From assembly GCA_017412645.1 (NCBI GenBank), contig JAFPWX010000023.1:3770-67769 (forward strand): 64,000 bases of DNA, read 5' to 3'. Position 1 is the stretch's first letter; each line of letters begins with the position of its first letter. Below the pieces are notes generated by a model that had not been told where the DNA came from, did no database searches, and worked only from the letters and a program-made list of their open reading frames with translations. This document shows, piece after piece, positions 8,000 to 55,557 of this stretch. Made by a program: the position numbers and the translations under genes. The DNA comes from Bacteroidales bacterium. Its GTDB lineage: Bacteria > Bacteroidota > Bacteroidia > Bacteroidales > UBA932.

Positions 8000-9183
8000 A
8001 CGTCCATAAGTATCCTTCTCCCCTTTGGGAGGAGATTGTTACAACGGCTCCCCAGGTTTTTGGCGAGCCCAAGAGGATGTCCGTGATATGCTACAATAAT
8101 CAGGCCTTGTGGAGTGCCTTCGGGCAGACGGAGAGCGTCGCGGTGGAGATAACGCAGAGCATCCTGAAGCGACAGCTCCACAACGGGATATTCGGGGCGA
8201 TATCCTATTGCGAGGACGCGGTCGAATTCTTCAATCTTCATTACGCCAGGCACTACAGAAAAAGCTGCACTCTTCAAGCCGGGAGCAGAGGTGCCGTTTG
8301 CGGAAGTTTTTTGCGTCAGGCCCCGTGCGGCCGCGGTAGCGGAGCAAACGGTAGCCTCTGGCCCGGCGTTCTGGTGCGCCGTTTTTCTCAGGGCCCCGAC
8401 CCACTGGCCTTCGCCTGGGACTTCACCCGCCTTGAGGAGATTGCCGTGGGCGGTCAGACGAACTCCGTACTGCGGGAATTCGTCTTCCGGGGCGAAGATT
8501 TCGCCTCCCAGGGTTTCAGCAGCCCATGCCAGATTGCCGTCGTTCTCCGCCTCTTCGTAGGTGCAGGTGGAGTAGACCAGGATGCCGCCTTCGCGAAGAG
8601 CTGGCCAGACATCGGCGAGGATCCTCCGCTGACGGGCCGCGCACATCTCCACCAGCTCCGGACTCCAGTCCGCCACGGCCTTGGGGTCTTTTCGGAACAT
8701 GCCTTCGCCGCTGCACGGAACGTCGGCCACGATTATGTCGAAGCAACTCGGCATCCGCTGCCCGAAAACGGCGGGGTCGGCGCTGGTAACCTGCACGTTC
8801 GGGTCACCCCATCGGGCAACGTTATCGCGAAGCACTCCGGCGCGGGCTTTCATCACCTCATTCGAAATCAGCTGGAACTTATCTCCGAGGGCTTCCCTGA
8901 GGCTCGCCGCCAGGTCGGTCGTCTTGCCTCCCGGGGCGGCGCAAAGGTCGAGCACCCTTACACCCGGGCCGAACTCACTTAAATGCTTGCGGAAGATGTG
9001 CCCCGGGTACATGGCGGAGCTGTCCTGGACATAGTAGCAGCCGGCGTGAAGAAGAGGGTCGAGGGTGAAGTTCGGACGCTCCTGCAGGATACGGCCGTAA
9101 GGGCTCCACGGAACGGGAGCGCCATCCGGGCCTTCACAGCCCTTGAAGGGATTCAGCCGTATTGCAGTACTTGGCGCTTCCAT
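7996..9183 (-). CDS. RsmB/RsmF/NOP2-family rRNA cytosine-C5 methyltransferase
   Basis: YYVQDSSAM, VLDLCAAPGGKT, DVPCSGEGMFRK, YSTCT motifs; C-terminal PUA-like region; contains a 30-aa low-complexity segment encoded by a palindrome. Confidence 0.9.
   Translation of the reverse strand: MEAPSTAIRLNPFKGCEGPDGAPVPWSPYGRILQERPNFTLDPLLHAGCYYVQDSSAMYPGHIFRKHLSEFGPGVRVLDLCAAPGGKTTDLAASLREALGDKFQLISNEVMKARAGVLRDNVARWGDPNVQVTSADPAVFGQRMPSCFDIIVADVPCSGEGMFRKDPKAVADWSPELVEMCAARQRRILADVWPALREGGILVYSTCTYEEAENDGNLAWAAETLGGEIFAPEDEFPQYGVRLTAHGNLLKAGEVPGEGQWVGALRKTAHQNAGPEATVCSATAAARGLTQKTSANGTSAPGLKSAAFSVVPGVMKIEEFDRVLAIGYRPEYPVVELSLQDALRYLHRDALRLPEGTPQGLIIVAYHGHPLGLAKNLGSRCNNLLPKGRRILMDV
8278..8367 (-). 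repeat. 90-bp intragenic imperfect palindrome, exactly 30 codons, in the RsmF-like gene
   Basis: Coding-strand arms GCCGGGCCAGAGGCTACCGTTTGC ... GCAAACGGCACCTCTGCTCCCGGC. Confidence 0.6.
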
Positions 9184-9635
9184 TAACTGAAGTTGTACTT
9201 GTCCTTTATGTCCTGCGGAAGGTCTTCCGGAATCTTGCCGTTGGAAACGTCTACCAGACCGTCAACTACGCGGTCGAGCGCCTCCTGGAGCTTGTTCCCA
9301 AGCATCATCTTCAGCATGAAATTGAGATCGGCGTCCACCTCTATGTAGAATTCGGTGGAGTTGGGACCGGCATAGTCGAAGTGCAGGCCGACGGTGAATT
9401 CGAAGGGAGCGTTCTCGCTGCGGAGTTCGATATAGGAATAGGGCTCGCGGCGCACGATGCGCGCGCTGATGCTTACGCCCTGAGCCTTGACGGAAATGGA
9501 ATCGTAGTCGGCCGTGACTTCTCCGAGCTTTTCGGCCGGAACCATACGGGTGAGGTTCCGTGGATCGGTGAAGACCATGAAAAGCTCCGCCTGAGGGCGG
9601 TTCACGGTGCCGTGCTTACTGGAATAATGCGTCAT
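9183..9635 (-). CDS. SRPBCC/CoxG-like ligand-binding protein
   Basis: 150 aa from ATG 9635; FMVFTDPRNL pattern and a C-terminal helix typical of SRPBCC folds. Confidence 0.7.
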   Translation of the reverse strand: MTHYSSKHGTVNRPQAELFMVFTDPRNLTRMVPAEKLGEVTADYDSISVKAQGVSISARIVRREPYSYIELRSENAPFEFTVGLHFDYAGPNSTEFYIEVDADLNFMLKMMLGNKLQEALDRVVDGLVDVSNGKIPEDLPQDIKDKYNFS

Positions 9636-9650
9636 CTCGAGAGTTTTTTC

Positions 9651-9666
9651 TAACTTTGCAAAGATA
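9651..9666. promoter_or_regulatory. Face-to-face overlapping -7 boxes (TAACTTTG plus, TATCTTTG minus)
   Basis: TAACTTTGCAAAGATA between the divergent SRPBCC and NUDIX genes. Confidence 0.65.
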
Positions 9667-9675
9667 GGAATAATT

Positions 9676-10287
9676 ATGCACAAGATTTACTTCGAGCGGC
9701 GCTGCATCATCATATGCAATCCGGACGATCAGGCACTTGCGGACCCGAACGCCATGGAGTTCCATGTGGGAGAAAAAATCGATATCCGCACTCTGGTGCT
9801 GATGTTCGAGGGTTCACAGGGTCTTTCCCGCATATACATACCCTGTGAAAACACCGACAAGATGTACCGCAGGCTCTGCGCGGAGTTTCGCGAAGTGAAC
9901 GCTGCCGGGGGTCTTGTGAGCAATCGCCGGGGAGATTTCCTATTGATTCGTCGTGGAGAACTCTGGGATCTTCCAAAAGGCCATCAGGAGGCCGGGGAAG
10001 ACATTAAGGTAACTGCCATCCGCGAAGTTCAGGAAGAGACCGGAGTGGACAAGCTCGAACTCAGGGACCTTATTTGCATAACCGATCACTGTTACCTGCG
10101 CGACGGAGTGTGGCACCTCAAGCACACCTGGTGGTACGACATGCTCTACACCGATCCGGTGAACCTCACCCCGCAGCGCGAGGAGGATATTACCAAGGCC
10201 GTATGGGTTGCAAAATCGAGCCTGCCGCCCTATCTGACCGAGACCTTCCCCAGCATCCAGGAAGTTTTCCGCGAAGCGAGGGTGTAA
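9676..10287 (+). CDS. NUDIX hydrolase
   Basis: Nudix box WDLPKGHQEAGEDIKVTAIREVQEETG. Confidence 0.9.
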   Translation: MHKIYFERRCIIICNPDDQALADPNAMEFHVGEKIDIRTLVLMFEGSQGLSRIYIPCENTDKMYRRLCAEFREVNAAGGLVSNRRGDFLLIRRGELWDLPKGHQEAGEDIKVTAIREVQEETGVDKLELRDLICITDHCYLRDGVWHLKHTWWYDMLYTDPVNLTPQREEDITKAVWVAKSSLPPYLTETFPSIQEVFREARV

Positions 10288-10294
10288 ATCCCAG

Positions 10295-11455
10295 TTACAG
10301 CATATTCATATTTACCGTGCAGCGGCCGAGAAGGTCGGTGCAAATGAGGCCGTCGCTCTCAAGGGTAAGGACGACAGGAGAGACCTCAGCATAAGGCAAT
10401 TCCAACACGGTGCAGAGTTCGTCCACGGTGATGCCCCTCTGTCGGTGGATAAACTCCGCCGTTTTGAGCATCAGGGCTTTCTGACTTTCCGGAAGATCTT
10501 TATAATAGTCCCGAATTTTGTCGAGGAAGCCTTTTCGGGCACGCAGATTATAGCGACCCAAGCCCAGCTGCAGCCCCACTTCCGCCAGGTTTACTATGGG
10601 CTCCGCCTTCTTTTCGCGGATGAGAATATTGCAGCCCTCTGAACGCAGGTCGTCGATACGGCCCGGAAGGGCGAACACCTCTCTTCCGTAACCCACCGCC
10701 AGTTCGGCAGTTATGAGCCCGCCTCCGTGCTTCTTGCTTTCTATAAGTATGGTTGCCCTGCTGAGCGCGGCAATGATACGATTTCTTCGGAGAAAAGTGA
10801 AGGCCACCGGGCCCGTCCCGGGCGGATAGTCGGTAACGAGAGCGCTGCCTTCAGATGCCGCTATCTTGCCGGCTGCCACAGCATGGGCATTGGGATAGAC
10901 GGTTTCTATCCCGTTAGGAAGCACGGCGATTGTTGACAGTCCATGGCCGAGAGCGGCCAGATGTGCGGTGATATCTATACCGTAAGCCAGCCCACTCACA
11001 ATTACCGGCTTCTCCGGAGCCTGACTGAGCGCGCTCACGACACGCGTGCACCATTCCTTCCCATAGGGGCTCATGTCTCGCGTGCCGACTATGGCAATAG
11101 CGGGGCGTGCGCGAAAAATCTCCTCCGGCGCCGAACAGCTCCGGTAATATAGCCCCGCCGGGGGATCGCCGCATTCCCTGAGTGCCTCCGGAAAGGCCGG
11201 GTCACAGAGTGGAAGATAGCGGCAGCCCTGCCGCTCAAGGCCGGCAAGTTCCTCCGCCGTCTGCTCCAGAAGGGCGTCAGTGAGAGTTCCCGAGTACTTG
11301 CTGTAAGGCCCGAGCAGACCATCCCTATCCTTGGGAGAAAGGGCAAACACAGCTGCAGCCGAGCCGGTGTTTTCCACTAGTGAGAGGGCCACCCGGGGCT
11401 CATACCCGAACACCTTTCCAAGCGCACACGCGCACACCGTTTCGTTGTTTTCCAT
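10295..11455 (-). CDS. dprA: DNA processing protein DprA
   Basis: IAIVGTR, IVSGLAYGIDITAH, FLRRNRIIAALS, GGLITA, ALPGRIDD motifs plus a C-terminal winged helix. Confidence 0.92.
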   Translation of the reverse strand: MENNETVCACALGKVFGYEPRVALSLVENTGSAAAVFALSPKDRDGLLGPYSKYSGTLTDALLEQTAEELAGLERQGCRYLPLCDPAFPEALRECGDPPAGLYYRSCSAPEEIFRARPAIAIVGTRDMSPYGKEWCTRVVSALSQAPEKPVIVSGLAYGIDITAHLAALGHGLSTIAVLPNGIETVYPNAHAVAAGKIAASEGSALVTDYPPGTGPVAFTFLRRNRIIAALSRATILIESKKHGGGLITAELAVGYGREVFALPGRIDDLRSEGCNILIREKKAEPIVNLAEVGLQLGLGRYNLRARKGFLDKIRDYYKDLPESQKALMLKTAEFIHRQRGITVDELCTVLELPYAEVSPVVLTLESDGLICTDLLGRCTVNMNML

Positions 11456-11480
11456 ACCCAAAGATAAGGGCAGGAAAAGC

Positions 11481-11520
11481 AAAAATCTGCCGGAGTAAAT
11501 CGGAACTCCGGCAGATTTTT
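11481..11520 (-). terminator. Perfect 16-bp inverted repeat, probable intrinsic terminator after queA
   Basis: AAAAATCTGCCGGAGT-8 nt loop-ACTCCGGCAGATTTTT. Confidence 0.8.
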
Positions 11521-11588
11521 ATGTTTTGAAAAAGTCGAAAAAAAAGATGAAACGTTTACAATCGTTTATAAACGTTTTACACCCTTTT

Positions 11589-12638
11589 TTACAGGATTAG
11601 AAGCGCGTCTCCGTATGGCCCGAAACGATAGCCTTCCTGGAGGGCGACCTCATAGGCGTTCATCACGTTCTTGTAGCCACCGAATGCCGCCTCGCACATG
11701 AGCATGGTGCTTTCGGGCAGATGGAAATTGCTCACGAATGCATCCGCAATGCTGAACTGATAGGGCGGGAAGATGAACTTGTTGGTCCACATGTCGCTGG
11801 GCTTCACCTCATGATTGGTGGTGGTGTAGGTTTCCAGTGCGCGAAGCACCGTGACACCAACCGCCAGCACCTTATGTCCGCTGTGCTTGGCCTCGTTGAT
11901 ACGCTCCGCGGATTCCGGGCTGATGATCATGCGCTCGCCGTCCATGCGATGCTTGGAAAGGTCTTCCACATCCACCTGACGGAAGTGGCCTATACCCATG
12001 TGAACGGTGATGAAAGTCTTGTCTATATCCTTGAGGATCATGCGGTTGAAGAGCTCGCGAGAGAAATGCATACCGGCTGCCGGGGCACTCACGGCACCCT
12101 CCTTCTCGGCGAAAATGGTCTGGAAATTCTCCACATCTTCCGGATCCGGTTCTTCCTTGACCCATTCGGGAATAGGAGTTTTGCCAAGGGCGAAAAGAGC
12201 CTGCTTGAACTCCTCGTACGGACCATCGTAAAGGAAACGCAGGGTGCGGCCGCGGGAGGTGGTATTGTCGATGACCTCGGCTACCATGCTCTCGTCTTCT
12301 CCGAAATAGAGCTTATTGCCTATGCGGATCTTGCGGGCGGGCTCCACTATCACGTCCCAGAGTTTCTGCTCGCGGCTGAGTTCGCGGAGAAGGAAGACCA
12401 TGATTTCCGCTCCGGTCTTTTCCTTTTTGCCATAAAGCTTTGCCGGGAAGACCTTGGTGTCGTTCAGGACGAAGAGGTCCCTCTTGCCGAAATAGTCGAT
12501 GATATCCTTGAACTGACGGTGTTCGATTTCACCGGTATTCTTGTGAAGAACCATCAGGCGGCACTCGTCGCGCCAGCGTGTGGGCTCCTTTGCGATGCGA
12601 TCCTGCGGGAGCTCGAAATTGAATTGAGAGAGTTTCAT
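11589..12638 (-). CDS. queA: S-adenosylmethionine:tRNA ribosyltransferase-isomerase
   Basis: LNDTKVFPAKL, FQTIFAEKEGAVSAPAAGMHF, NFHLPESTMLM, YRFGPYGDALLI. Confidence 0.95.
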   Translation of the reverse strand: MKLSQFNFELPQDRIAKEPTRWRDECRLMVLHKNTGEIEHRQFKDIIDYFGKRDLFVLNDTKVFPAKLYGKKEKTGAEIMVFLLRELSREQKLWDVIVEPARKIRIGNKLYFGEDESMVAEVIDNTTSRGRTLRFLYDGPYEEFKQALFALGKTPIPEWVKEEPDPEDVENFQTIFAEKEGAVSAPAAGMHFSRELFNRMILKDIDKTFITVHMGIGHFRQVDVEDLSKHRMDGERMIISPESAERINEAKHSGHKVLAVGVTVLRALETYTTTNHEVKPSDMWTNKFIFPPYQFSIADAFVSNFHLPESTMLMCEAAFGGYKNVMNAYEVALQEGYRFGPYGDALLIL

Positions 12639-12731
12639 TTAGTGAAAAGGGTATAACAAATAATTATACGGACAAATAGCCCGAAAAGTTTCAGGTCCAT
12701 CCTAAAGGAATAATCGTTATCTTTGTGTGTT

Positions 12732-13496
12732 ATGTTCATCGACACCCATACCCATGTGACCGACGAGGCCTTCCACGGCGAAGAAGACGCCGTTGTACAG
12801 AGGGCCGTCGCCGCCGGCGTGGGCAAGATGCTTCTGGCCGACGTGGGCAGCGAAGAGCGGGGTCCGATGTTCGCCGCATGCGAGCGGCATCCCGGCGTGC
12901 TCTACCCCATGCTCGGCCTGCATCCCGAGAACGTAAAGGAGAACTGGCAGAACGAACTGGCCCTGCTGGAAGACTGGCTCCCCCGGAACCCCGTGGCCAT
13001 AGGCGAAATCGGCCTGGACTACCACTGGGACGTCTCTTTCAAGGAGCAGCAGAAGGAGGCCCTGCGAGCTCAGTTCGAACTGGCAGCACGGGAGAATCTG
13101 CCAGTAAACATACATCTCCGCGACGCCACCGAAGACTTTCTTGCAGTGGTTAAAGACTGTGCGCATCTTCACCTTCGCGGCAACATGCACGCCTTCTCCG
13201 GCAGCCTCGAAACCTGGAAGGAACTCTGCCGCTGGGGCGACTGGAGCGTGGGAATAGGAGGCGTGCTCACGTTTAAAAACGCACATCTGCCCGAAGTGGT
13301 GTCTGAGATCCCGCTCAACCGCATTCTGCTCGAAACCGACGCTCCATACATGGCTCCCGTGCCGCTCAGGGGCAGCCGCAACGAACCGGCAAACATCCCG
13401 ATTATCGCCGCAAAAGTGGCTGAAATCAAGGGAATCAGCATAGAAGAAGTGGAAAATGCGACCACCGCAAACGCCAAGGAACTGTTCAGCATATGA
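12732..13496 (+). CDS. TatD-family hydrolase
   Basis: IDTHTH, GLHP, AIGEIGLDY, LLETDAPY. Confidence 0.92.
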   Translation: MFIDTHTHVTDEAFHGEEDAVVQRAVAAGVGKMLLADVGSEERGPMFAACERHPGVLYPMLGLHPENVKENWQNELALLEDWLPRNPVAIGEIGLDYHWDVSFKEQQKEALRAQFELAARENLPVNIHLRDATEDFLAVVKDCAHLHLRGNMHAFSGSLETWKELCRWGDWSVGIGGVLTFKNAHLPEVVSEIPLNRILLETDAPYMAPVPLRGSRNEPANIPIIAAKVAEIKGISIEEVENATTANAKELFSI

Positions 13497-14539
13497 GTAA
13501 TCCGTCAAATAAATCAAGTGTCCTCCTCATCTACACCGGAGGTACCATCGGAATGAAGGAAGACCCGAAAACCAAGGCCCTCTCCCCCTTTGATTTCAGC
13601 CAGATACTGCAGGAAGTCCCAGAGCTCGGGAAGTTCTCTTCGAGAGTGGATTCCTACACCTTCGATCCGCTCATCGACTCTTCCGACGTGGAGCCGTCGC
13701 TATGGATACGGCTTACGGAGCTCATACGCGACCGTTACGACGATTACGCCGGCTTCATCGTGCTTCACGGCACCGACACCATGGCCTATAGCGCCTCGGC
13801 CCTGAGCTTCATGCTGGACCATCTACGCAAACCGGTTATCTTCACCGGAAGCCAGCTCCCCATAGGGTCGCTGCGCACCGACGGCAAGGAGAACCTCATT
13901 TCGGCCGTGGAGATAGCTACGGCCCACGACAGCAAGGGCGCCGCCATCGTCCCGGAGGTCTGTATCTACTTCAATTCGCAACTCATCAGGGGCAACCGGG
14001 CCTGCAAGGTGAATTCTACCAGTTTCGACGCCTTCCGCTCTCCCAACTGGCCCACTCTGGCCGATGCCGGCATCAGCATACGTTTCCACGAGCACGCCAT
14101 CCACTACTCCGCCGTGCCCGACCGCAAGTTTCAGATTCACACCACGCTGGACACACGTGTAGCGATACTCAAGATCCACCCGGGAATCACCGAACAGGTA
14201 GCCCGCAACGTGCTTCTGGGCGATGGAATCAGGGCCGTCATACTGGAAACCTACGGCTCCGGCAACGCAATCAGCAAGCCCTGGTTCACGGATATCCTCC
14301 GGGAGGCGGCGGCATCAGGGAAGATCCTGCTCAACATTACCCAGTGCCTCGCAGGGGAGGTGAACATGAACCTTTATTCCACAGGTAAGGCGCTTGCCGA
14401 AGCGGGCGTCGTGGGAGGCGGAGACATGACCACCGAAGGTGCCCTCGCCAAGCTTTTTGTGCTTATGGGCGAATATACTGACAATGAAAAGGTTAAGGAA
14501 CTCCTGGGGCAGGACCTCAAGGGCGAAATCACAAAATAA
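13493..14539 (+). CDS. ansA: Type I L-asparaginase
   Basis: IYTGGTIGM, HGTDTMAY, FTGSQLP motifs. Confidence 0.92.
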   Translation: MSNPSNKSSVLLIYTGGTIGMKEDPKTKALSPFDFSQILQEVPELGKFSSRVDSYTFDPLIDSSDVEPSLWIRLTELIRDRYDDYAGFIVLHGTDTMAYSASALSFMLDHLRKPVIFTGSQLPIGSLRTDGKENLISAVEIATAHDSKGAAIVPEVCIYFNSQLIRGNRACKVNSTSFDAFRSPNWPTLADAGISIRFHEHAIHYSAVPDRKFQIHTTLDTRVAILKIHPGITEQVARNVLLGDGIRAVILETYGSGNAISKPWFTDILREAAASGKILLNITQCLAGEVNMNLYSTGKALAEAGVVGGGDMTTEGALAKLFVLMGEYTDNEKVKELLGQDLKGEITK

Positions 14540-14638
14540 CGCTTGCCTTTCGGATTTTTTTTCCTAAATTGCAACGATTTCAAGCAAACTGAAACAAAAC
14601 TAAAGATAAATTAATTTAAAAACACCAAAAATTCAGTT

Positions 14639-15439
14639 ATGAAAAAGTTTTTCATGATTCTGGCGGCCCTGGCTCTTATGGCCTTCACTGCCAACATCGC
14701 GTCCGCACAGGACTCCGCAGCCCCCGCTGACGAAGCTACCGAGCAGGTTGCAGAAGCTACCGAGGCTGAAGTCGCTCCGCTTGCAGAGGAAGCTCCCGAA
14801 GAAATTCCTCTCACCCAAGCCATCAAGACCAAGTTCATCGAAGGCGGCGCTGGCTTCATGTCCCTCATCATCCTCTGCCTCATCATCGGCCTTGCGTTCG
14901 CAATTGAGAGGATTCTCTATCTCTCCTTCTCCAAGACGAATACCGACGCCCTTCTGAAGAAGGTTGAGGAAGCTCTTGCCGAAGGTGGCATCGAGAAAGC
15001 AAAGGACATCTGCCGTGAAACCCGCGGCCCCGTGGCAAGCATTTTCTATCAGGGTCTGCTCCACTACGACCAGGGTATCGACGTTGTCGAAAAGAACATC
15101 GTGTCCTACGGTTCTGTTCAGGCCAGCCTCATGGAAAACGGTCTCAGCTGGATCGCCCTCTTCATCGCCATCGCCCCGTCTCTCGGATTCCTCGGAACCG
15201 TTATCGGTATGGTACAGGCCTTCGATGATATTCAGAAGGCAGGTGACATCTCTCCGAACGTTGTGGCTGGCGGTATGAAGGTCGCTCTTATCACCACCGT
15301 CGCCGGTCTTATCGTGGCTATGATTCTCCAGGTGTTCTACAACTACATCCTCTCCAGAATCGAAGCCCTCACCATCGACATGGAAAACAGCACCATCAAC
15401 ATGGTGGACGTCCTCTCCAAGTACGAAGAAAAGAAGTAA
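14639..15439 (+). CDS. MotA/TolQ/ExbB proton-channel protein
   Basis: APSLGFLGTVIGM...ALITTVAGL; acidic Ala/Glu-rich N-terminal extension. Confidence 0.9.
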   Translation: MKKFFMILAALALMAFTANIASAQDSAAPADEATEQVAEATEAEVAPLAEEAPEEIPLTQAIKTKFIEGGAGFMSLIILCLIIGLAFAIERILYLSFSKTNTDALLKKVEEALAEGGIEKAKDICRETRGPVASIFYQGLLHYDQGIDVVEKNIVSYGSVQASLMENGLSWIALFIAIAPSLGFLGTVIGMVQAFDDIQKAGDISPNVVAGGMKVALITTVAGLIVAMILQVFYNYILSRIEALTIDMENSTINMVDVLSKYEEKK

Positions 15440-15446
15440 TGTAATT

Positions 15447-15887
15447 ATGAAGAATTACAACAAATTATTCACCTGGCTGATGATTGTGCTGGCCGTGATA
15501 GGCTTCGCGCTGGTCGTCTGGGGCTTCGTAGGAGGCTGGGAGACGAAGAACGCGTTGGCTTCGGACGCCATCCTCACCTTCGCCTACATCATGGTCGGAA
15601 TCGCAGTCCTGGCCATCATCACCGGCGTTGTGATCGGAGGCATGAACGACCCGAAGAGCCTTGTCAAGCTCGGCATCACCCTCGTGGCAATCGCAGTCGT
15701 GTGCTTCGTGGTGTATCTCATTGCACCCGGCACCGAGGCGAAGGGCCTGCTCGTGGAGCAGCCCGGCCCCGGCACGCTCAAACTTACCGACACAGTACTC
15801 TATCTCGCATACCTTCTCGCCATTGCGGCCGCGGTTGCCATCGTGGTCGGCGAGGTGCGTGTTGCCATAACCAACAAAAAGGGCTGA
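15447..15887 (+). CDS. Membrane protein with four hydrophobic segments in the ExbB-ExbD operon
   Basis: Hydrophobic helices; sits between exbB and exbD as in other Bacteroidales. Confidence 0.75.
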   Translation: MKNYNKLFTWLMIVLAVIGFALVVWGFVGGWETKNALASDAILTFAYIMVGIAVLAIITGVVIGGMNDPKSLVKLGITLVAIAVVCFVVYLIAPGTEAKGLLVEQPGPGTLKLTDTVLYLAYLLAIAAAVAIVVGEVRVAITNKKG

Positions 15888-15893
15888 TAATCC

Positions 15894-16472
15894 ATGGCAA
15901 AGAAATTACCCGGACTCAACACGTCGTCCACCGCAGACATAGCGTTCCTGCTTCTGTGCTACTTCCTCATGACTACAACCATGGGGTCGCAGACAGGTCT
16001 TAGCCGTCGTCTTCCTCCCATGCCAGACGAAAAGCAGAAAACGCAGGACCAGAAGGTCAATCGTCGCAACATTATCATTGTGAAGATCAACTCGCAGGAC
16101 CGTTTGATGGCCGGAACTGAGCCCATGGATGTTAGTCAGCTTAAAGACAAGATCAAGATATTCTTGACCAATCCCACCAACGATCCCACCCTTCCCGAAA
16201 AGGAACTTCTGGACATTGAAGGCCTTGGCAAGCGCGAAGTCTCCAAGGGAGTTATCTCCCTTCAGAACGACCGTGGTACCAGCTATCAGGCCTACATCGC
16301 AGTCCAGAACGAACTTGTGAAGGCGGTGAACGAGCTTCGTGACGAGGCATCAATGGTGGAATTCGGTAAAAAGTTTCTGCAGCTCGACGAAGACCAGCAG
16401 GGTATGATCAAGAAACTCATACCTTCCTACATTTCCGAGGCGGAGCCCAAGGATATCGGCAAAAAGAAATAG
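15894..16472 (+). CDS. ExbD/TolR biopolymer transport protein
   Basis: SSTADIAFLLLCYFLMTTTM. Confidence 0.88.
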   Translation: MAKKLPGLNTSSTADIAFLLLCYFLMTTTMGSQTGLSRRLPPMPDEKQKTQDQKVNRRNIIIVKINSQDRLMAGTEPMDVSQLKDKIKIFLTNPTNDPTLPEKELLDIEGLGKREVSKGVISLQNDRGTSYQAYIAVQNELVKAVNELRDEASMVEFGKKFLQLDEDQQGMIKKLIPSYISEAEPKDIGKKK

Positions 16473-44564: not shown

Positions 44565-45518
44565 ATGCGCTACAAAATCACTCTTTCATACGACGGAGCC
44601 CCCTTCTGCGGCTGGCAGAGGCAGCCCGACGCGCCGAGCGTTCAGGAAGCTCTCGAAACCGCGCTGCAAACCCTTCTGGGAGAGCCTGTTCCGGTTACCG
44701 GCGCAGGCCGCACCGACACCGGTGTCAGTGCCGTGGATTATGTGGCGCATTTCGACGCTCGGCAGGAGCTCGACGCAGGTCATCTTGCCTGCAAATTAAA
44801 TGCCATCCTGCCCGTCTCGATAGCCGTTTCCAAGCTTGAGCCGGCCGCGCCGGACTTCCATGCCCGCTTCGACGCCCGCAAACGCACATACACTTACTTT
44901 CTGCACCGCTGCAAAGACCCGTTCCTGGCCACCCGTTCGTATTTTTACGGCTACCCGGAAGTGGATTTCGAAGCCATGAACAAGGCGGCCGCGATGCTTG
45001 TCGGCACCCACGATTTTTCCTGCTTCCAGAAGGTCGGATCGGACAACAAAACCACCACCTGCACCGTCTTCGAAGCTGGCTGGCAGCCTTACGCTCCGGC
45101 CGGAGGGACCCTTGCCTCCGACCCGGTTCGCGGATCCACCGCTCATCCCTCCCAGCCTGGCGGCGGGGCCCCTCGAAGCGAAGGAAACCGGGGTCCCCGA
45201 AAATCTGCTGATTTTTGGGGTGCTCACGAGGGTGGCACGCCTCTCGGAGGCAAGGTCCCTCCGGCCTCGCCGCAATATTGGTTCTTCCGGATTTCGGCCG
45301 ACCGCTTCCTGCGGAACATGGTTCGGGCCATAGTGGGAACGCTGTTGGAGGTAGGTCGCGGCCGCCGCAGCCTCGAGGAGTTCGCCGCGCTCATCCTCCC
45401 GCCGGCTCCTAATGCCTCCGGTGCCGGAATCGCCCCGAAAAACTCGCCGTCGCGCCGTTGTCTTGCAGGCGAGTCCGCCCCCGGCCACGCCCTCTTCCTC
45501 ACCGCCATAGAGTACTGA
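44565..45518 (+). CDS. truA: tRNA pseudouridine(38-40) synthase carrying a ~56-aa in-frame insertion
   Basis: YDGAPFCGWQ, GAGRTDTGV (catalytic Asp), FHARF, HDFSCF, ADRFLRNMVRAIVGTL, APGHALFL. Confidence 0.92.
   Translation: MRYKITLSYDGAPFCGWQRQPDAPSVQEALETALQTLLGEPVPVTGAGRTDTGVSAVDYVAHFDARQELDAGHLACKLNAILPVSIAVSKLEPAAPDFHARFDARKRTYTYFLHRCKDPFLATRSYFYGYPEVDFEAMNKAAAMLVGTHDFSCFQKVGSDNKTTTCTVFEAGWQPYAPAGGTLASDPVRGSTAHPSQPGGGAPRSEGNRGPRKSADFWGAHEGGTPLGGKVPPASPQYWFFRISADRFLRNMVRAIVGTLLEVGRGRRSLEEFAALILPPAPNASGAGIAPKNSPSRRCLAGESAPGHALFLTAIEY
45098..45266 (+). mobile_element. Palindromic MITE/RPE-like element inserted in frame in truA
   Basis: Arms GGCCGGAGGGACCCTTGCCTCCGA (45098-45121) and TCGGAGGCAAGGTCCCTCCGGCC (45244-45266) pair perfectly apart from one bulged base; inner hairpin CCCCGAAAATC-TGCT-GATTTTTGGGG (45195-45220). 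Confidence 0.8.
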
Positions 45519-45545
45519 CCTGTCGGCCTGTAGCCGGACAGGTGC
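45517..45545. repeat. 29-bp REP-like palindrome, copy 1
   Basis: GACCTGTCGGCCTGTAGCCGGACAGGTGC, identical to 62506-62534. Confidence 0.85.
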
Positions 45546-48692: not shown

Positions 48693-49573
48693 TGGCGTTC
48701 AAATCTGGTTTCATCAACATAATAGGCAATCCCAACGTCGGCAAGAGCACGCTCATGAACGCCATCATGGGTGAGAAGCTGAGCATCGTCACCGCGAAGG
48801 CCCAGACCACCCGTCACCGCATCATGGGCATACTCAACGGCGAGGACTACCAGGCGGTGTTCTCCGACACCCCGGGCATACTCAAGCCGGTGTACCGTCT
48901 GCAGGAAGACATGATGGGCGCGGTTCGCAGCGCAATAGGCGATGCCGACGTGATCCTTTACGTCACCGATACGGTGGAGAAGGCCGACAAGAACGGCGAA
49001 TACGTGCGCAAGCTCTCCGAACTGCTCTGCCCGGTCGTCGTGGTGATCAACAAGATCGACCTGAGCGACCAGGCCCGCGTGGAGGAACTGATGGCCCTGT
49101 GGCGGGAGCATCTCCCCAAGGCCACCGTCATCCCCGCATCGGCAAAGGAGCACTTCGGACTCGAGAACATACTCAGCACCGTAGTGGGCCTGCTTCCCGA
49201 AGCTCCGGCCTGGTACGACCGCGATACCTTCACCGACCGCAATCTGCGCTTTTTCGCAAGCGAGATCATCCGCGAGAAGATACTCCTGAACTACCGTGAG
49301 GAGATTCCCTACTCCTGTCAGGTGGAGATCGAGAGCTTCCGAGAAGGCGAAGACCGTTACGAGATAAACGCAGTCATTTACGTGATGCGCGACACCCAGA
49401 AGGGAATAGTGATAGGCAAGGGCGGCAGCGCCCTCAAGAAAGTGGGCACCCAGGCCCGCATCGACATGGAAGATTTCTTCCAGAAGAAGGTCTTCCTGCA
49501 GCTGCTGGTAAAGGTGGATCCCGACTGGCGGGAGAACCGCAGGGAACTGCGTAAATTCGGATACGAAGACTAG
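48692..49573 (+). CDS. era: GTPase Era
   Basis: GNPNVGKST, QTTR, DTPG, NKID, KH-domain GKGGSALK. Confidence 0.96.
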   Translation: MAFKSGFINIIGNPNVGKSTLMNAIMGEKLSIVTAKAQTTRHRIMGILNGEDYQAVFSDTPGILKPVYRLQEDMMGAVRSAIGDADVILYVTDTVEKADKNGEYVRKLSELLCPVVVVINKIDLSDQARVEELMALWREHLPKATVIPASAKEHFGLENILSTVVGLLPEAPAWYDRDTFTDRNLRFFASEIIREKILLNYREEIPYSCQVEIESFREGEDRYEINAVIYVMRDTQKGIVIGKGGSALKKVGTQARIDMEDFFQKKVFLQLLVKVDPDWRENRRELRKFGYED

Positions 49574-49579
49574 AAGATT

Positions 49580-52387
49580 ATGGAAGAAGACGATATAATG
49601 ACCCAGGAAGAGCAGCTGGATGCCGACGCCCTCGAGGCCCCATTGGCTGAAGACGCCGCCCCGTCGGGCAAGTTCGACCGTCTGCTTGGAAGCGACGCCT
49701 CCAAGTTCAAACTGTCGGGCATGTTCCGGGACTGGTTCCTCGACTACTCCTCGTACGTGATACTGCAGAGGGCCGTGCCGCACGTGGTGGACGGTCTGAA
49801 GCCTGTGCAGAGGCGTGTGCTCCACGCCATGTTCCGCATGGACGACGGCGCCTACACCAAGGTGGCCAACATCGTGGGACAGGCCATGCAGTACCATCCG
49901 CACGGCGACGCTTCCATTCTGGGAGCCCTGGTGCAGCTTGGGCAGAAGGGTCTGCTCATCGACTGCCAGGGTAACTGGGGCAACATCCTCACCGGCGACT
50001 CCAACGCCGCCCCGAGGTACATCGAGGCACGCCTGAGCAAGTTCGCAAAGGAAGTGGTCTTCGACCCGGAAATCACCAACTGGATGAACTCCTACGACGG
50101 CCGCAACCAGGAGCCCACCGAGCTCCCGGTCCGCTTTCCGCTGCTGCTCGCACAGGGCACCGAGGGCATCGCCGTGGGTATGGCCAGCAAGATACTCCCC
50201 CACAACTTCAACGAACTGCTTGACGCGTCAGTGAAGATACTCGAGGGCAAGCCCTATGAGATCTACCCGGACTTCCCCACCGGGGGCTTCGCCGACTGTA
50301 GCAAATACCAGAACGGCAGGCGCGGCGGCAGCGTGAAGGTGCGCGCCCGCATCGAAAAGATAGACAAGAGCACGGTCGCCATCACGGAGATTCCTTATGG
50401 CAAGACCACCCACATGCTCATCGACTCCATACTCAAGGCCAAGGACAAGGGCAAGATAAAGATCAAGAAGATCGAGGACATGACCACCGACCGCGTGAAC
50501 ATCCTCATCCATCTGCCCGGTGACGTGTCGCCCGACAAGACGATTGACGCCCTCTATGCCTTCACGGACTGCGAATGCAACCTGGCCCCGAATGCCTGCG
50601 TAATCCGGAACAACAAGCCGGAGTTCCTGTGCATCAACGACATCCTGGAGTACGACACCATGCACACCCGCGACCTCCTGGAGGCCCAGCTTCGCCTGAA
50701 GCTCACAAAACTCGAAGGCGACTGGCACTGGAGCACGCTGGAAAAGATCTTCTTCGAGAACCGCATCTACAAGGTCCTCGAACAGGATCAGAAGACATGG
50801 GAAGACCAGCTGCAGGACATCTTCGAGCAGATGCTTACCTACCAGGACCTCCTGAAGCGCGAAATCGTGATGGAGGATATCCTGAAGCTCGTGGAGAAGC
50901 CGGTACGCAAGATTTCCCGCTTCGACACCAAGGCGAACGACGAGAAGATAGTCCGCATCGAGAACGAGATGGCCGAGGTGCAGCACAATATCGACACCAT
51001 CACCGACTACACTATAGCCTGGTTCAAGGGCCTCAAGGAAAAGTACGGCAAGGACTTCCCGCGCCTCACCGAGCTCACCGGCTTCGAGACCATCGCCGCC
51101 ACCAAGGTGGTGAACAACAACGCAAAGCTCTCCGCCAATCTGGAAGAGGGCTTCGTGGGAATCGGTCTCAAGCGCGACGATCGCGGCGAATACATCTGCG
51201 ACTGCTCCGACATGAGCGAAATCATAGTTATCAGCCGCGACGGCAAGTACCGCATCGCCAAGGTGGAGGACAAGGCCTTCTTCGGCAAGGACCTCCTCTA
51301 TGTGAACGTGTTCAACCGCGGCGACGAGCGTACCATCTACAACGTGATCTACCGCGACGGGGGCAGCGGAGTCTACTACGCCAAGCGCTTCCCTGTCACG
51401 AGCATCACCCGTGACAAGGAGTACGACATCACCATGGGCACTCCGGGCAGCCGCATCGAGTACTTCTCGGCCAACCACAACGGCGAAGCCGAGACCGTGA
51501 AGGTGAACCTTCGTCCCAAGGCCAAGCTCAAGAAGACCAGCTTCGAGTACGACTTCGCCACCCTGGCCATCAAGGGCAAGGCGGCGCGCGGCAACCTGGT
51601 TTCCAAGAACCCGGTGCGCAGCATCGCGCTCAAGAGCCGCGGCGTCTCCACCATCGCCGGCAAGGACATCTGGTACGACACCGACATACAGAAACTCAAC
51701 GACGAGGGACGCGGCCTCTACCTGGGCCAGTTCGACACCTCCGACAAGGTTCTGGCGGTATTCCGCAACGGCACCTTCTACACCACTGGCTTCGAGCTTG
51801 TGAACAAGTATCAGGGCGACGTGCTGCTCATCCAGAAGTTCGACCCCGAGAAGACCTTCACAGCCCTCTATTACGACGGCGCCGCCAAGGCCTTCTACGT
51901 GAAGCGATTCAGCTTCCCTCTCAGCGAGAACAACCCGCAGAGCTTCATAGCCGACGGTCCGAAGTCGTATCTGGTGGCCATTTCGGAAGATCCGAGGCCG
52001 CAGTACCAGGTGACCTTCGGCGGCAAGGACGGCACCCACTCCCCCGAAACCATTTCGGCGGAAGATTGGATTGGCAAGAAGGGCTTCACCGCCAAGGGCC
52101 GCAAGTGCCACGACCGCTACAAGGTTGCGAAGGTGAAGTTCGTAGAGCCGCTGCCCGTTCCGGAAGAGTTGCAGGAAGATATGCCTGAGGATATGCCGGA
52201 AGAACCCGAGGCAATGGAAGCGGTAGAACTCCTGGAGGACCTTCCGGAAGAGACGATAGTCGAAAACGTGGCACCCGAGCCGGAACCGGCAGCCGAAGCT
52301 GCAACGGCCGAACCGAAAGCCGCGAAAAAGAAGGCCGCTCCAAAGGAAGAGGCCATAGAGTTGTTTGAAGAACCCACCCTGTTTTGA
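49580..52387 (+). CDS. parC: DNA topoisomerase IV subunit A (Bacteroidota type)
   Basis: DGLKPVQRR, YHPHGD, AAPRYIEAR catalytic Tyr; acidic C-terminal tail. Confidence 0.85.
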   Translation: MEEDDIMTQEEQLDADALEAPLAEDAAPSGKFDRLLGSDASKFKLSGMFRDWFLDYSSYVILQRAVPHVVDGLKPVQRRVLHAMFRMDDGAYTKVANIVGQAMQYHPHGDASILGALVQLGQKGLLIDCQGNWGNILTGDSNAAPRYIEARLSKFAKEVVFDPEITNWMNSYDGRNQEPTELPVRFPLLLAQGTEGIAVGMASKILPHNFNELLDASVKILEGKPYEIYPDFPTGGFADCSKYQNGRRGGSVKVRARIEKIDKSTVAITEIPYGKTTHMLIDSILKAKDKGKIKIKKIEDMTTDRVNILIHLPGDVSPDKTIDALYAFTDCECNLAPNACVIRNNKPEFLCINDILEYDTMHTRDLLEAQLRLKLTKLEGDWHWSTLEKIFFENRIYKVLEQDQKTWEDQLQDIFEQMLTYQDLLKREIVMEDILKLVEKPVRKISRFDTKANDEKIVRIENEMAEVQHNIDTITDYTIAWFKGLKEKYGKDFPRLTELTGFETIAATKVVNNNAKLSANLEEGFVGIGLKRDDRGEYICDCSDMSEIIVISRDGKYRIAKVEDKAFFGKDLLYVNVFNRGDERTIYNVIYRDGGSGVYYAKRFPVTSITRDKEYDITMGTPGSRIEYFSANHNGEAETVKVNLRPKAKLKKTSFEYDFATLAIKGKAARGNLVSKNPVRSIALKSRGVSTIAGKDIWYDTDIQKLNDEGRGLYLGQFDTSDKVLAVFRNGTFYTTGFELVNKYQGDVLLIQKFDPEKTFTALYYDGAAKAFYVKRFSFPLSENNPQSFIADGPKSYLVAISEDPRPQYQVTFGGKDGTHSPETISAEDWIGKKGFTAKGRKCHDRYKVAKVKFVEPLPVPEELQEDMPEDMPEEPEAMEAVELLEDLPEETIVENVAPEPEPAAEAATAEPKAAKKKAAPKEEAIELFEEPTLF

Positions 52388-52893
52388 TCCTGGCGATTTG
52401 CGGATTCATGGGGTCGGGCAAGACCACGACGGGACGCTCCCTGGCGGCCCGGCTCGGCTGGCAGTTCGCCGATCTCGACAGCGAAATCGAGAAGGCGGCA
52501 GGCCAGACGGTGGCGAAGATCTTTGAAGATGAAGGCGAAGCGGCCTTCAGAAAAAGGGAGACGGAGGCCCTCCGGGCGATTCTGGTCGATGCCGACACTC
52601 CCCTGGTGCTCGCCCTTGGCGGCGGAACGCTCATGGCCGAAGAGAACCGGCAGCTCGTGCGGCAGCACTGCCGCTGCGTATGGCTGAAGGCTTCACCGAC
52701 GGCGCTGGCAGAAAGGCTGGCACACGAGGCCGAAGGCCGTCCGCTGCTGGCCGGGCAGGACCTGCGAACCAGGGTGGCGACGCTGCTGGCCGGCAGGGAA
52801 GGCACCTACCGGGAAGCGGCCGACGTCGTCGTCGACACAGACGGCATCTCCCCGGAGGAGACAGTAGAAAGAATAATTGAAATATTAAGATAA
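52384..52893 (+). CDS. aroK: Shikimate kinase
   Basis: [26 protein letters not shown]. Confidence 0.92.
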
Positions 52894-54431
52894 TGGAACA
52901 GTTCAACGAACAGGAACAAAACAGAAGAAACGCTTTAACCGCGCTGCGCGAACTCGGAATCAACCCATATCCGGCGCCGCTTTATCCCGTTAACGCCACG
53001 GCTGCCGGGATAGCTGCCGGCTTCGACCGCGAGGCCGCCGCACAGGAAGGATTCGACCCCACGGTGGGGCCTTTTGCCGATGTCTGCATCGCCGGCCGTA
53101 TCATGAGCCGCCGCATCATGGGAGCCGCCTCCTTCGGCGAGCTTCAGGACTCCACCGGACGCATCCAGATCTACGTGAAACGCGATGAGATCTGCCCCGG
53201 CGAAGACAAGACCATGTACAACACCGTATGGAAGAAGCTGCTCGACATAGGCGACATCATAGGAATCAAGGGCTTCGCCTTCCTCACTCAGACCGGCCAG
53301 CTCAGCGTTCACGCACGCGAGCTCACCCTGCTCAGCAAGTCTCTGAGGGTTCTGCCGATAGTGAAGGAAGCCGACGGAGTGGTGCACGACGCAGTGACCG
53401 ACCCCGAGCTCCGCTACCGTCAGCGCTACGTAGACCTAATCGTGAACCCGCAGGTGCGCGAAGTGTTCGTGAAGCGTACTCAGATCATGAACACCATGCG
53501 CAAGTTCTGCTCCGACGCAGGCTATCTGGAGGTGGAGACCCCCATCCTGCAGAGCATCCCTGGAGGCGCCACCGCCCGTCCGTTCATCACCCATCACAAT
53601 GCGCTGGACATTCCGCTGTACATGCGTATAGCCGATGAGCTTTACCTGAAGCGCCTGATCGTGGGCGGATACGACGGAGTGTTCGAGTTCGCAAAGGACT
53701 TCCGCAACGAGGGAATGGACAAGACCCACAACCCGGAGTTCACCCAGATGGAGCTCTACGCCGCCTATAAGGATTATATCTGGATGATGGATTTCACCGA
53801 GCGCATGCTCGAGAAGATAGCTTTGGACCTTCACGGCACCACCGTGGTGGAGGTCGACGGCAACCAGATCGACTTCAAGGCCGGTTGGAGGAGAGTTCGC
53901 ATCCTGGATGCAATCAAGGAATACGCCGGCGTGGATGTGCACGACATGGACGAGGCCGCCCTCCGCGAGACCTGCAAGAAACTGCATGTGGAGACCACTC
54001 CTTCGATGGGCCGCGGCAAGCTGATCGACGCCATCTTCGGAGCCTTCTGCGAGGAGCACTTCATCCAGCCCACCTTCGTGACCGACTATCCCGTGGAGAT
54101 GTCGCCGCTCACCAAGCGCTGCCGCTACGACGACACGCTCACCGAGCGCTTCGAGCTCTTCGTGAACGGTCACGAACTGGCCAACGCCTACTCCGAGCTC
54201 AACGACCCCATCGACCAGCTGGAGCGCTTCAAGGAAGAGGCCGCCCTCAAGACCAAGGGCGACGACGAGGCGATGTTCGTGGATTACGATTTCGTGCGCG
54301 CCCTCGAGTACGGCATGCCGCCTACCGCGGGTATAGGCATCGGTATCGACCGTCTGGCCATGCTCATGCTCGGCCAGAGCAGCATCCAGGATGTCCTGTT
54401 CTTCCCCCAGATGAGACCTGAAAAAATGTAA
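52893..54431 (+). CDS. lysS: Lysine--tRNA ligase (class II)
   Basis: [43 protein letters not shown]. Confidence 0.96.
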
Positions 54432-54438
54432 AAAAGAT

Positions 54439-54648
54439 ATGAAACAGTTCACCCTTGACAAGCAGAACAGGAAGATCGGAGGCGTTTGCGCCGGTCTTGC
54501 CAAGTACTTCGGAATCGATGTGACCATCATCAGGGCTGCGTTCCTTTTCGCACTGCTCTGCCTCTCCTCCGGATTCTGGCTCTACGTGATCCTCTGGATC
54601 ATTGCGCCCGCCGAGGATGAATCCGCACCGACCGTCCATTACGAATAG
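54439..54648 (+). CDS. PspC-domain membrane protein
   Basis: KIGGVCAGLAKYFGIDVTIIR...YVILWII. Confidence 0.88.
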   Translation: MKQFTLDKQNRKIGGVCAGLAKYFGIDVTIIRAAFLFALLCLSSGFWLYVILWIIAPAEDESAPTVHYE

Positions 54649-54669
54649 GCTCGTTTGATAGCGGATTCG

Positions 54670-55557
54670 ATGGCGGAGCTCCTCACATCGGCGCAGAACC
54701 CCAAATTCAAGCGCCTGGTCGCCCTGCGTGAAAAGTCGCGGTTACGCCGCGACGAGGGCGTGTTTGTGGTGGAGGGACGCCGCGAACTGGAGCACTGCGT
54801 GGAGGCGGGGTTCGAGGTGGAGACGGTGTTCGTGTGCCCGGAGATAGCCGACTCCGCTGCGGGGGCTACTCCCCCTTCGGGAGTTCGTCCTTCGGACTCA
54901 CCCCACCACCCCTCCGGGGCGGTCCCCCCGCTTCCGTGCCGCGGGTGTTACGTCCCTCAGGGGGAGTACCCCCGCAGCTTAGGGCCCAAAACCTTCGAAC
55001 TGAGCAAGGAATTGTATGCCAAGGTGGCTTACAGGGAGGGAACGGAAGGAGTGATGGCGATTGTTAAGAGCCGCGAGCTGCGGCTGGATGAGCTGCAGTT
55101 AGGCGACAAGCCGCTGGTAATGGTGCTGGAAGGAGTGGAGAAACCCGGCAACCTCGGGGCGGTTCTGAGGAGTGCCGACGCGGCCGGGGCAGACGCCGTG
55201 ATCGTCTGCGACCCGCTTACCGACCTCTGGAACCCCAATCTAATCCGCGCCAGCATCGGAGCGGTGTTCACCGTGCCCACCGTATGCTGCTCTTCGGCCG
55301 AGGCCATCGCGTGGCTGAAGGCACGCGGGATACGCATCCTCACCGCCCAGCTGCAGGATTCGTCCGTCTATTACGACGCCGACATGACAGGCCCCACCGC
55401 CATCGTGATGGGCACCGAAGCCACCGGTCTCACAGATCCCTGGCGCCAGGCCGCCGATGCCCACGTGCTTATACCGATGCTGGGCCGTCTGGACTCGCTG
55501 AACGTGAGCGTCTCCGCCGCCATTCTCCTGTATGAGGCAGTCCGGCAGAGGCAGTAG
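54670..55557 (+). CDS. TrmH/SpoU-family RNA 2'-O-methyltransferase with a 41-aa in-frame insertion
   Basis: EKPGNLGAVLRSA, VMGTEATGL, IPMLGRLDSLNVSVSA. Confidence 0.92.
   Translation: MAELLTSAQNPKFKRLVALREKSRLRRDEGVFVVEGRRELEHCVEAGFEVETVFVCPEIADSAAGATPPSGVRPSDSPHHPSGAVPPLPCRGCYVPQGEYPRSLGPKTFELSKELYAKVAYREGTEGVMAIVKSRELRLDELQLGDKPLVMVLEGVEKPGNLGAVLRSADAAGADAVIVCDPLTDLWNPNLIRASIGAVFTVPTVCCSSAEAIAWLKARGIRILTAQLQDSSVYYDADMTGPTAIVMGTEATGLTDPWRQAADAHVLIPMLGRLDSLNVSVSAAILLYEAVRQRQ
54856..54978 (+). mobile_element. Palindromic MITE/RPE-like element inserted in frame in the TrmH gene
   Basis: Arms GCTGCGGGGGCTACTCCCCCT (54856-76) and AGGGGGAGTACCCCCGCAGC (54959-78) pair perfectly apart from one bulge; 123 nt = 41 codons on codon boundaries; inner GTCC-TTCG-GAC hairpin. 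Confidence 0.8.

Follow-up and report, generated by a model that had tools for sequence, protein, structure and literature searches.

How can genes for conserved RNA-modifying enzymes carry long DNA palindromes inside their coding sequence and still be read from end to end? The question is raised by a 64,000-nucleotide (nt) stretch of the genome of a Bacteroidales bacterium of the GTDB group UBA932 (contig JAFPWX010000023.1, positions 3,770 to 67,769; hereafter the window), part of a 1.8-Mb, 26-contig assembly of 55% GC, in which truA, a gene for a TrmH/SpoU-type RNA methyltransferase and a gene for an RsmF-like 16S rRNA methyltransferase each contain such a segment. An initial annotation of the window had taken these segments for copies of a dispersed, non-autonomous palindromic element that inserts in frame, in the manner of the Rickettsia palindromic elements (RPEs). 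The RPEs are non-autonomous palindromic repeats of 100-150 bp that lie in frame in unrelated housekeeping genes of a small genome; the added peptides are tolerated, and the repeats are not known to be linked to a transposase (Ogata et al. 2000, as summarised in PMC10969869). We consider it somewhat probable that the segments in the window belong to a genus-wide family of small non-autonomous mobile DNA elements, which would move as single-stranded DNA through HUH enzymes and would acquire their second arm by fold-back. Coordinates without a contig prefix are those of the window, while those with a C prefix (C6, C17 and so on) refer to contigs of the genome.

The arms of the truA and TrmH segments pair perfectly but for a single bulged base on the 5' side, as had been described for them. 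In truA the inverted repeats 45098-45110/45254-45266 and 45110-45121/45244-45255 leave one extra C in the 5' arm, and the predicted RNA fold of the segment (-104.9 kcal/mol, z = -4.9) was matched in stability by none of 200 shuffles. The TrmH element is made up of a 5' arm at 54856-54869 (GCTGCGGGGGCTAC, with a bulged C), a core at 54870-54965 and a 3' arm at 54966-54978; its inverted repeats (54856-54865/54969-54978 and 54862-54882/54953-54973) give a fold of -76.2 kcal/mol (z = -4.5). The blocks that the two segments had been noted to share (GTTCG, CTCAYCCC and a 3' block) are homologous, in that one covariance model of the core, R1, built on the shared centre of 56 positions, matches both segments with E values of 2.6e-14 and 6.6e-9. 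The ORFs (open reading frames) of all three hosts are uninterrupted (Table 1). Ortholog alignment places the truA insert, which contributes about 56 residues (AGGTLASDP...PLGGKVPPA), in the loop between ...EAGWQPY and YWFFRISADRFL; an AlphaFold model of TruA with the insert, made from a shallow alignment, has a mean predicted local distance difference test score (pLDDT) of 43.7 and is uninformative. The C-terminal region of TruA (window 45380-45470, LILPPAPNASGAGIAPKNSPSRRCLAGES) is a second indel-variable site of the gene, reading as a far shorter LL-EGGSRTQSGES in several close alleles.

The RsmF segment, which had been put forward as a weaker third case, proved to be a hairpin with the architecture of the other two (outer arms that vary, one base in excess on the 5' side and an in-frame position), albeit with a weaker fold. 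It is not, however, a member of the same family. Its core, CCGTTTGCTCCGCTAC...CGCAAAAAACTTCCGCAAACGGCA, differs from those in truA and the TrmH gene, and because R1 has no match there and a homologous copy is found elsewhere (C17:~69475-69555, in the same frame of a 364-aa ORF), we treat it as a separate two-copy family, D.

Table 1. Positions in the window of the three host genes and of the elements they contain.
Feature	Position	Strand	Description
truA (tRNA pseudouridine synthase A)	44565..45518	+	317 aa; ORF open throughout; PF01416 given for homologs
Family A element in truA	45098..45266	+	169 nt, sense; inverted repeats, fold
5' arm of truA element, GGCCGGAGGGACCCT	45098..45112	+	Locus-specific, single bulged C; absent from other family A copies
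Core of truA element, family A	45113..45252	+	Copies by blastn/nhmmer; match to covariance model R1; covarying helices P3/P4/P5
Nested expansion in P4 loop of truA element	45174..45227	+	Separates A-long from short AB type
3' arm of truA element, AGGTCCCTCCGGCC	45253..45266	+	Complements the 5' arm
TrmH/SpoU-type RNA methyltransferase gene	54655..55557	+	300 aa; ORF open; PF22435 and PF00588 given for homologs
Family B element in TrmH gene	54856..54978	+	123 nt, sense; inverted repeats, fold, other copies
RsmF/RsmB-like 16S rRNA methyltransferase gene	7996..9183	-	395 aa; Pfam PF01189, PF13636, PF17125
Family D element in RsmF-like gene	8278..8367	-	90 nt, 30 codons; fold z = -2.7

Searches with blastn, nhmmer and R1 yielded 11 core copies in the genome, each inside a long, conserved ORF that stays open and keeps its frame on both sides of the insert. 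The hosts, whose identities are backed by Pfam matches, are truA, mutL, a WbqC-QueH fusion, PAP2, an S13 DD-peptidase (a remnant copy), the TrmH gene, polA, atpG, an M28 peptidase, DUF819 and DUF3575; nine copies lie in the sense orientation and two in antisense. Relatives of the truA core (140 nt) in mutL and the WbqC-QueH ORF are 96-97% identical to it, and the same search gave one shorter hybrid copy and one remnant. The TrmH core (96 nt) has three more copies, in polA, atpG and the M28 peptidase gene, at 89-96% identity. The segment in truA represents subfamily A, and that in the TrmH gene subfamily B, of a single element family, to which R1 adds two copies of a third subfamily, C.

With the two copies of family D, this genome has 13 intragenic copies, all in open conserved ORFs and all folding as long hairpins, the 11 core copies being 90-170 nt in size; gapless hairpins sought across the whole genome numbered 10, whereas a codon-shuffled genome yielded 1. 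The in-frame insertions amount to 30-56 codons of a peptide rich in Pro, Gly, Ala and Ser, and within subfamilies A and B the sense copies use one frame, giving the recurring peptides ASDPVRG..AHPSQPGG... and PPSGVRPSDSPHHPSG... The chance of 11 of 11 insert lengths being multiples of three is (1/3)^11, and because the frame is kept in every copy, ribosomes would be expected to read through and add the peptide. The initial annotation had named three outcomes that would count against a family of this kind, namely a lack of further copies, peptides conserved in distant orthologs, and ends shared with a known insertion sequence (IS) or MITE (miniature inverted-repeat transposable element). What we found instead were these further copies, insert peptides that are not conserved in distant orthologs, and no described IS or MITE with the same ends. 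The existence of the family, dispersed and non-autonomous as initially proposed, and its persistence in frame can be regarded as practically certain. Across the genus the open frames per copy number 2.6 of 6, compared with 2.2 in shuffles; since this excess is weak, we rejected selection for open frames as a trait of the family, and in-frame persistence is mainly a survival filter.

Within the genus, 100 of 121 genomes carry the core, in up to about 40 copies, many of them at contig ends, while outside the genus it was found in one of 200 genomes of the order (167 genera sampled). Copies in the relatives are mostly intergenic, with a minority in ORFs, so the all-intragenic pattern is particular to this small genome. 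The sole carrier outside the genus (G147), from another family of the order, has five core matches, several of them at contig ends, at loci that include L214, L216 and L218; these may reflect horizontal transfer of the element or of its mobiliser. Phage and plasmid collections gave no match to the core.

The elements share a plan in which a conserved multi-hairpin core stands between two mutually complementary arms that are specific to each copy. The core measures about 60-100 nt in its basic form and 140 nt with the nested expansion, and comprises two hairpins, P2 of 4 bp and P3 of 7 bp, together with a pair of interleaved helices, P4 and P5; in the family A core of truA these accompany an inner stem, TGCCTCCGA/TCGGAGGCA. 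The expansion in the P4 loop of truA is itself a small hairpin (inverted repeat 45195-45205/45210-45220); 13 residues are missing there from the TruA alleles P0124-P0126, whose arms are unchanged, and the C6 copy also lacks it. When the pairing was scored on 54 copies, 93% of cells paired, against 83% in column shuffles, and none of 500 shuffles reached 93%; compensatory double changes occupied 70 cells where 16.8 were expected, and sliding the partners by 1-3 columns as a control reduced pairing to 56% or less. Covariation is seen in P3, P4 and P5, including both P4 and P5 despite their interleaving.

The details of these helices point to one strand as the structured one. Mismatches in P3 consist of 18 A.C and 3 G.T, an A.C being a G.T wobble on the opposite strand, and on the complement strand the hairpin loops read GAA, GCA or GNNA and are closed by C:G. 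With first and third loops of 1 nt and 5-6 nt, the interleaved P4/P5 would, by standard pseudoknot geometry, make an H-type pseudoknot of ordinary sterics on the complement of the '+' strand alone. The structured strand is therefore probably complementary to the one that serves as sense in most hosts. As it is antisense to most host mRNAs, an intermediate of single-stranded DNA, or else an antisense RNA, accounts for it better than an element of the mRNA.

Strongly covarying helices, pseudoknot-like interleaved ones among them, and wobble pairs tolerated on one strand only might also be expected of a functional structured RNA (a regulatory or antisense RNA, a processing signal or a self-excising intervening sequence), kept for its function and perhaps removed from the mRNA; the many copies that lie between genes in relatives, where terminators and stabilisers act, would suit such a role as well. 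We nevertheless consider an RNA function improbable. All 13 intragenic copies are in frame and stop-free, which splicing would not require; the structured strand is antisense to most host mRNAs in this genome; and polymorphism for presence, absence and inversion at single sites is typical of mobile DNA. Comparison with Rfam matched no family to the elements: only two tRNAs in the window reach gathering scores, and seven related loci gave nothing relevant at E values up to 1.

The arms are not conserved terminal repeats of the element; they are locus-specific and differ from copy to copy. In this genome they comprise 13-16 nt outside a 6-9-bp inner stem, always with one extra base (usually C) in one arm, and in related genomes they measure 21-43 nt (most 26-31), are often perfect and are nearly all unique, only the innermost 8 bp or so being semi-conserved. 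Outer arms differ even among copies with 95-97% identical cores, including copies within one genome, and their GC content follows that of the flanks (r = 0.50, p = 2e-4). The reported lack of a direct target-site duplication was borne out in the flanks of about 25 copies, where we saw nothing consistent and only short coincidences (CTAC at mutL, GCTGG at C17). These properties bear on the idea that the elements are classical MITEs, mobilised by the DDE transposase of a related IS acting on terminal inverted repeats and producing a direct target-site duplication. Their size, hairpin shape and multicopy spread, and the assemblies broken at copies, do resemble those of MITEs; yet variable termini around near-identical cores and the want of a consistent flanking duplication make this origin most improbable. 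Nor was any longer element with the same ends found. Copies spaced at 2.7 kb (2.6-2.8 kb in genomes G018, G056 and G128) were considered as the boundaries of an autonomous parent, and this candidate was rejected as they bracket tandem FtsX/MacB-type ABC-permease paralogs instead.

Alleles gathered by a protein-collection search, which for TrmH, TruA and M28 are at least about 93% identical outside the insert, reveal extensive turnover at single sites. At the TrmH site we found subfamily B in both orientations, C type and a B/C chimera, along with an expanded and a partly deleted form, a tandem multi-copy state, a 24-nt hairpin footprint and an empty state, the element allele exceeding the footprint allele by 99 nt (33 codons). 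At the TruA site there are A-long and a short AB type that shares its arms, AB with different arms, C type and a number of footprints left by deletion, of which one (PAL/EGSAS) arose via GGAGG microhomology, and the M28 alleles include B inverted, B forward, forward in other frames, A type, both-arm footprints and deletions. Empty and footprint alleles thus occur in near-identical strains. The truA insert is missing from the ortholog in the nearest genome (G016), in one relative the site is occupied by a different subfamily, and in another an independent insertion lies a few codons away.

Inversion is a recurrent part of this turnover. Both orientations are found at one site in different strains (TrmH P0002 versus P0012, M28 P0243 versus P0249), with differing arms; and at an intergenic locus followed through three species, the arms are inherited and erode by point mutation and the core is flipped in one species (L011 and L013 have the same flanks around cores in opposite orientation). 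Intragenic invertons are known in Bacteroides (PMC10028968), and if the arms were recombination sites of an invertase, reversible flipping of the core would recode the protein as a form of phase variation. Both orientations at the TrmH and M28 sites are open reading frames, as this would demand, and the core reversed between identical flanks in two species is what an invertase would produce. The arms, on the other hand, have no common sequence for a site-specific recombinase, forward and inverted alleles at one site differ in their arms too, and the elements are multicopy and mostly intergenic in relatives, all of which leads us to regard invertons as a very unlikely explanation.

The same genes contain further inserted sequence. 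A more distant TrmH homolog of 375 aa (P0077) has three tandem partial repeats of the element peptide (GGRVLGGTRPPLSNRGCYVPQGKCPEPRGEE...), and so part of the element has been amplified in tandem inside the gene. Further downstream (alignment columns ~235-320), five TrmH homologs (P0007, P0041, P0043, P0053 and P0061) carry another insertion, unrelated to the first, of about 70-100 residues (WTLADLDVMLSSRGNAGEN...RVPLHQSQGAQGSRPQGARQQ...), which is polymorphic among strains otherwise 97-99% identical; it is absent from the gene in the window. In TruA homologs P0127, P0131, P0133 and P0137 the loop that receives the element holds another insert (ALKSSTAAGTCRPTAGQVNQDIADNQGVAGQ...), unlike families A-D, which may be another element type using the same permissive loop.

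Comparison of filled and empty alleles offers some insight into where the arms of the mobile element come from. The filled TrmH allele reads GCTGCGGGGGCTAC-core-GTACCCCCGCAGC, whereas the empty allele P0024 reads GCTGCGGGG-CTCAAC-AGC, where the sequence of the outer 5' arm is present as native Ala-Ala-Gly codons without the 3' arm. A second empty allele, P0023, has GCTGCGGACTG, the outer 5' arm of the C-type alleles, without their 3' arm ...CAGTCCGGCCAGC. One arm of the M28 allele P0249 has native Gln-Pro-Leu codons as its outer 7 nt, and to these the opposite arm is complementary. Where it can be resolved, the extra bulged base is on the native arm. These three allele comparisons, together with the relation between arm and flank GC, suggest that one arm is native target and the other an inverted copy of it made at insertion; the balance is close, and we lean marginally against a target origin of the arms. 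The M28 allele P0250 was rejected as a never-filled allele, for it retains AAGGGGGAG from the core end and hence is a deletion remnant, which renders every 'empty' allele suspect.

It may also be that the core alone is mobile and inserts into the loops of hairpins that already exist, whether excision footprints or chance palindromes, the arms never being synthesised; some IS elements target REP (repetitive extragenic palindromic) hairpins in a comparable way. Footprints are indeed short two-arm hairpins, such as that of TrmH P0016 with its 9-bp stem and 6-nt loop, and the M28 footprints P0248 and P0256 read ADGW/GAHPP. One site can also hold different subfamilies and orientations in related strains, as re-insertion at a landing pad predicts, but such alleles have their own arms, not re-used ones. 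Given, moreover, that P0024 and P0023 hold the sequence of one arm only, and that unique near-perfect palindromes of 25-40 bp would not be expected beforehand at dozens of intergenic sites, insertion into pre-existing hairpins is in our estimation unlikely.

No transposase had been seen in the window; candidate genes are present outside it, elsewhere in the genome. Among the proteins of this genome are four divergent ones of the HUH Y1 type, about 300 aa in length, that resemble REP-associated tyrosine transposases (RAYTs), with the HUH motifs DHTH, NHYH and NHVH, a Y-x-x-N-N-P-like tyrosine motif and a long C-terminal extension. Genes for RAYT-like proteins are located, for instance, at C6:3231-4142 and C17:46550-47512. 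They score 28-31 bits with Pfam Y1_Tnp (cut-off 23) and 27-45 bits with NCBIfam REP_Tyr_transpos NF047646, below its cut-off of 80, as divergent relatives. Each of the four genes is 1.3-6.7 kb from an element copy, and none of 20,000 random placements came as close; in genome G125 a RAYT-like ORF has an element copy about 0.3 kb upstream of it. Of 100 core-bearing genomes, 59 have one particular RAYT-like subfamily, as do 2 of 20 core-free ones (Fisher p = 5e-5, phylogeny being ignored), the median copy number being 9 against 1. In a search with NF047646, which likewise takes no account of phylogeny, all 14 high-copy genomes tested have 1-7 such genes, compared with 5 of 20 core-free genomes. 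By these sequence comparisons the RAYT-like HUH genes appear to be the best candidate mobiliser, and the case that they do mobilise the elements is evenly balanced.

The genes of one subclass of Bacteroidetes RAYTs have been described as lying next to 'atypical secondary structures' that recur at other places in the genome (PMC6006769). In the present genome, two copies of a small hairpin, GGAGACGTCCCATTTTTCGGGACGTCTCC, stand at C8:~62800-63040, just upstream of the RAYT-like gene C8:63044-64159, in a REPtron-like arrangement, and similar units occur at C15:108610-108700, C10:22277-22366 and C26:3584-3673. A reverse transcriptase was considered as mobiliser and rejected, since 6 of 13 element-rich genomes encode PF00078, as do 4 of 11 without elements, and G046 lacks it despite its 35 copies; the reverse transcriptase ORF of this genome (C20:144485-145795, 436 aa, PF00078 E 2.5e-16) shows no association with the elements.

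We propose a mechanism in which the elements would move as single-stranded DNA handled by the co-occurring RAYT-like HUH tyrosine transposases. The self-folding core would be joined to one side of the target, and, ahead of the second joining, fold-back synthesis along the neighbouring target DNA would extend its 3' end, held at the base of its own stem. The product would be a second arm that is an inverted copy of the target, that is, a 'target-site inverted duplication' instead of a direct one. Later, recombination between the arms or processing of the hairpin could flip the core, slippage between short repeats could delete it, and in a genome as dense in genes as this one the only copies to survive selection would be those in frame and in loops. 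That insertion yields an inverted target duplication, each copy gaining near-perfect arms of 10-40 bp from its own site by the fold-back route, is a tentative and rather doubtful part of the scheme.

Several considerations weigh against this mobile, fold-back reading. Covariation in a DNA palindrome can stem from hairpin-templated repair and not from selection on structure, and translation of the inserts is deduced solely from the conservation of frame. A number of seemingly empty alleles (P0250, P0016 and P0142) are deletion remnants, and therefore P0024 and P0023 could be asymmetric deletions too. Nor is the native side constant: in TrmH it is the 5' arm, in M28 P0249 the 3' arm, so that a model of target-derived arms must invoke later flipping of the core. 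As to the enzyme, the flanks of three RAYT-like genes contain other small hairpins and no core, many core-bearing genomes are without the RAYT-like subfamily that was scored, and the shared ancestry of the genomes enters none of the association statistics; mobility and the role of the enzyme are both deduced from comparison of sequences.

Other hairpin repeats occur in this genome. An identical REP-like palindrome, ACCTGTCGGCCTGTAGCCGGACAGGTGC, is found at window positions 45518-45545 and 62507-62534, directly following the stop codons of truA and of an ORF that ends at 62501, and C10:22158-22265 contains two of these units inverted in the manner of a REPIN. Separate from the in-frame elements, these repeats make up a second hairpin family and may be terminators or RAYT substrates. 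Two further hairpin elements of about 165 nt (C11:33061-33225 and C13:97195-97358) have a common terminal sequence, AGAAGCTGTTT.../...AAACAGCTTCT, and in this resemble a conventional MITE with conserved terminal inverted repeats, unlike the variable-arm family.

In-frame selfish palindromes have so far been seen mainly as a peculiarity of Rickettsia, and a 2024 review of prokaryotic MITEs that lists in-frame cases names no Bacteroidota. Here the phenomenon is abundant in a large uncultured genus of rumen and gut Bacteroidales, in which natural population data record gain, loss, inversion and subfamily replacement at single sites, and it affects proteins that include tRNA- and rRNA-modifying enzymes, DNA polymerase I, MutL and the gamma subunit of ATP synthase. 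The system is tractable for asking in what way essential proteins accommodate inserted peptides and perhaps make use of them, what role the poorly understood RAYT-like HUH proteins of Bacteroidetes play, and whether a mobile element can make its terminal repeats from target DNA. If true, an inverted target duplication would be a transposition signature undescribed for bacterial elements, and the family would be a built-in source of invertible, excisable, in-frame peptide cassettes in essential genes. On a practical level, the elements break metagenome-assembled genomes and inflate apparent variation in protein length, which affects annotation and ortholog calling in gut metagenomics.

Set beside known systems, the elements are closest in behaviour to the RPEs, both being palindromic multicopy repeats in frame within unrelated protein-coding genes, although the likeness is functional only. 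They differ in their host, a member of the Bacteroidota and not of the Rickettsiales, in their locus-specific outer arms and covarying, interleaved core helices, in the mostly intergenic position of the copies in relatives, and in the strain-level inversion, subfamily swaps and footprints documented here. The conserved terminal repeats, target-site duplication and parent IS by which classical MITEs are recognised were all not found. As in REP/REPIN-RAYT systems, hairpin repeats co-occur with genes for HUH single-tyrosine proteins, and handling as single-stranded DNA is presumed in both. A REPIN, however, has conserved arms (two REPs) around a variable spacer, whereas here the centre is conserved and the arms vary; no conserved GTAG/CGTC foot of the REP kind was identified in the present elements; and, unlike in a REPtron, the RAYT-like genes are near the elements and not flanked by them, and the copies in this genome are intragenic, not extragenic.

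In IS200/IS605 elements, subterminal hairpins are read as single-stranded DNA by a Y1 HUH enzyme. These elements and their palindrome-associated miniature derivatives resemble the present family in having no usual terminal inverted repeats and no target duplication, but they possess distinct left and right end hairpins and a fixed tetranucleotide target, whereas our elements have a single central core between mutually pairing arms, and a target motif was not found for them. The intragenic invertons of Bacteroides (PMC10028968) are likewise inverted repeats inside genes that occur in both orientations and are translatable; they are single-locus switches with recombinase-specific repeats, and not a multicopy mobile family with different arms at every locus. 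The behaviour of in-frame palindromes is thus already known from the RPEs, while an inverted target duplication is potentially a new mechanism.

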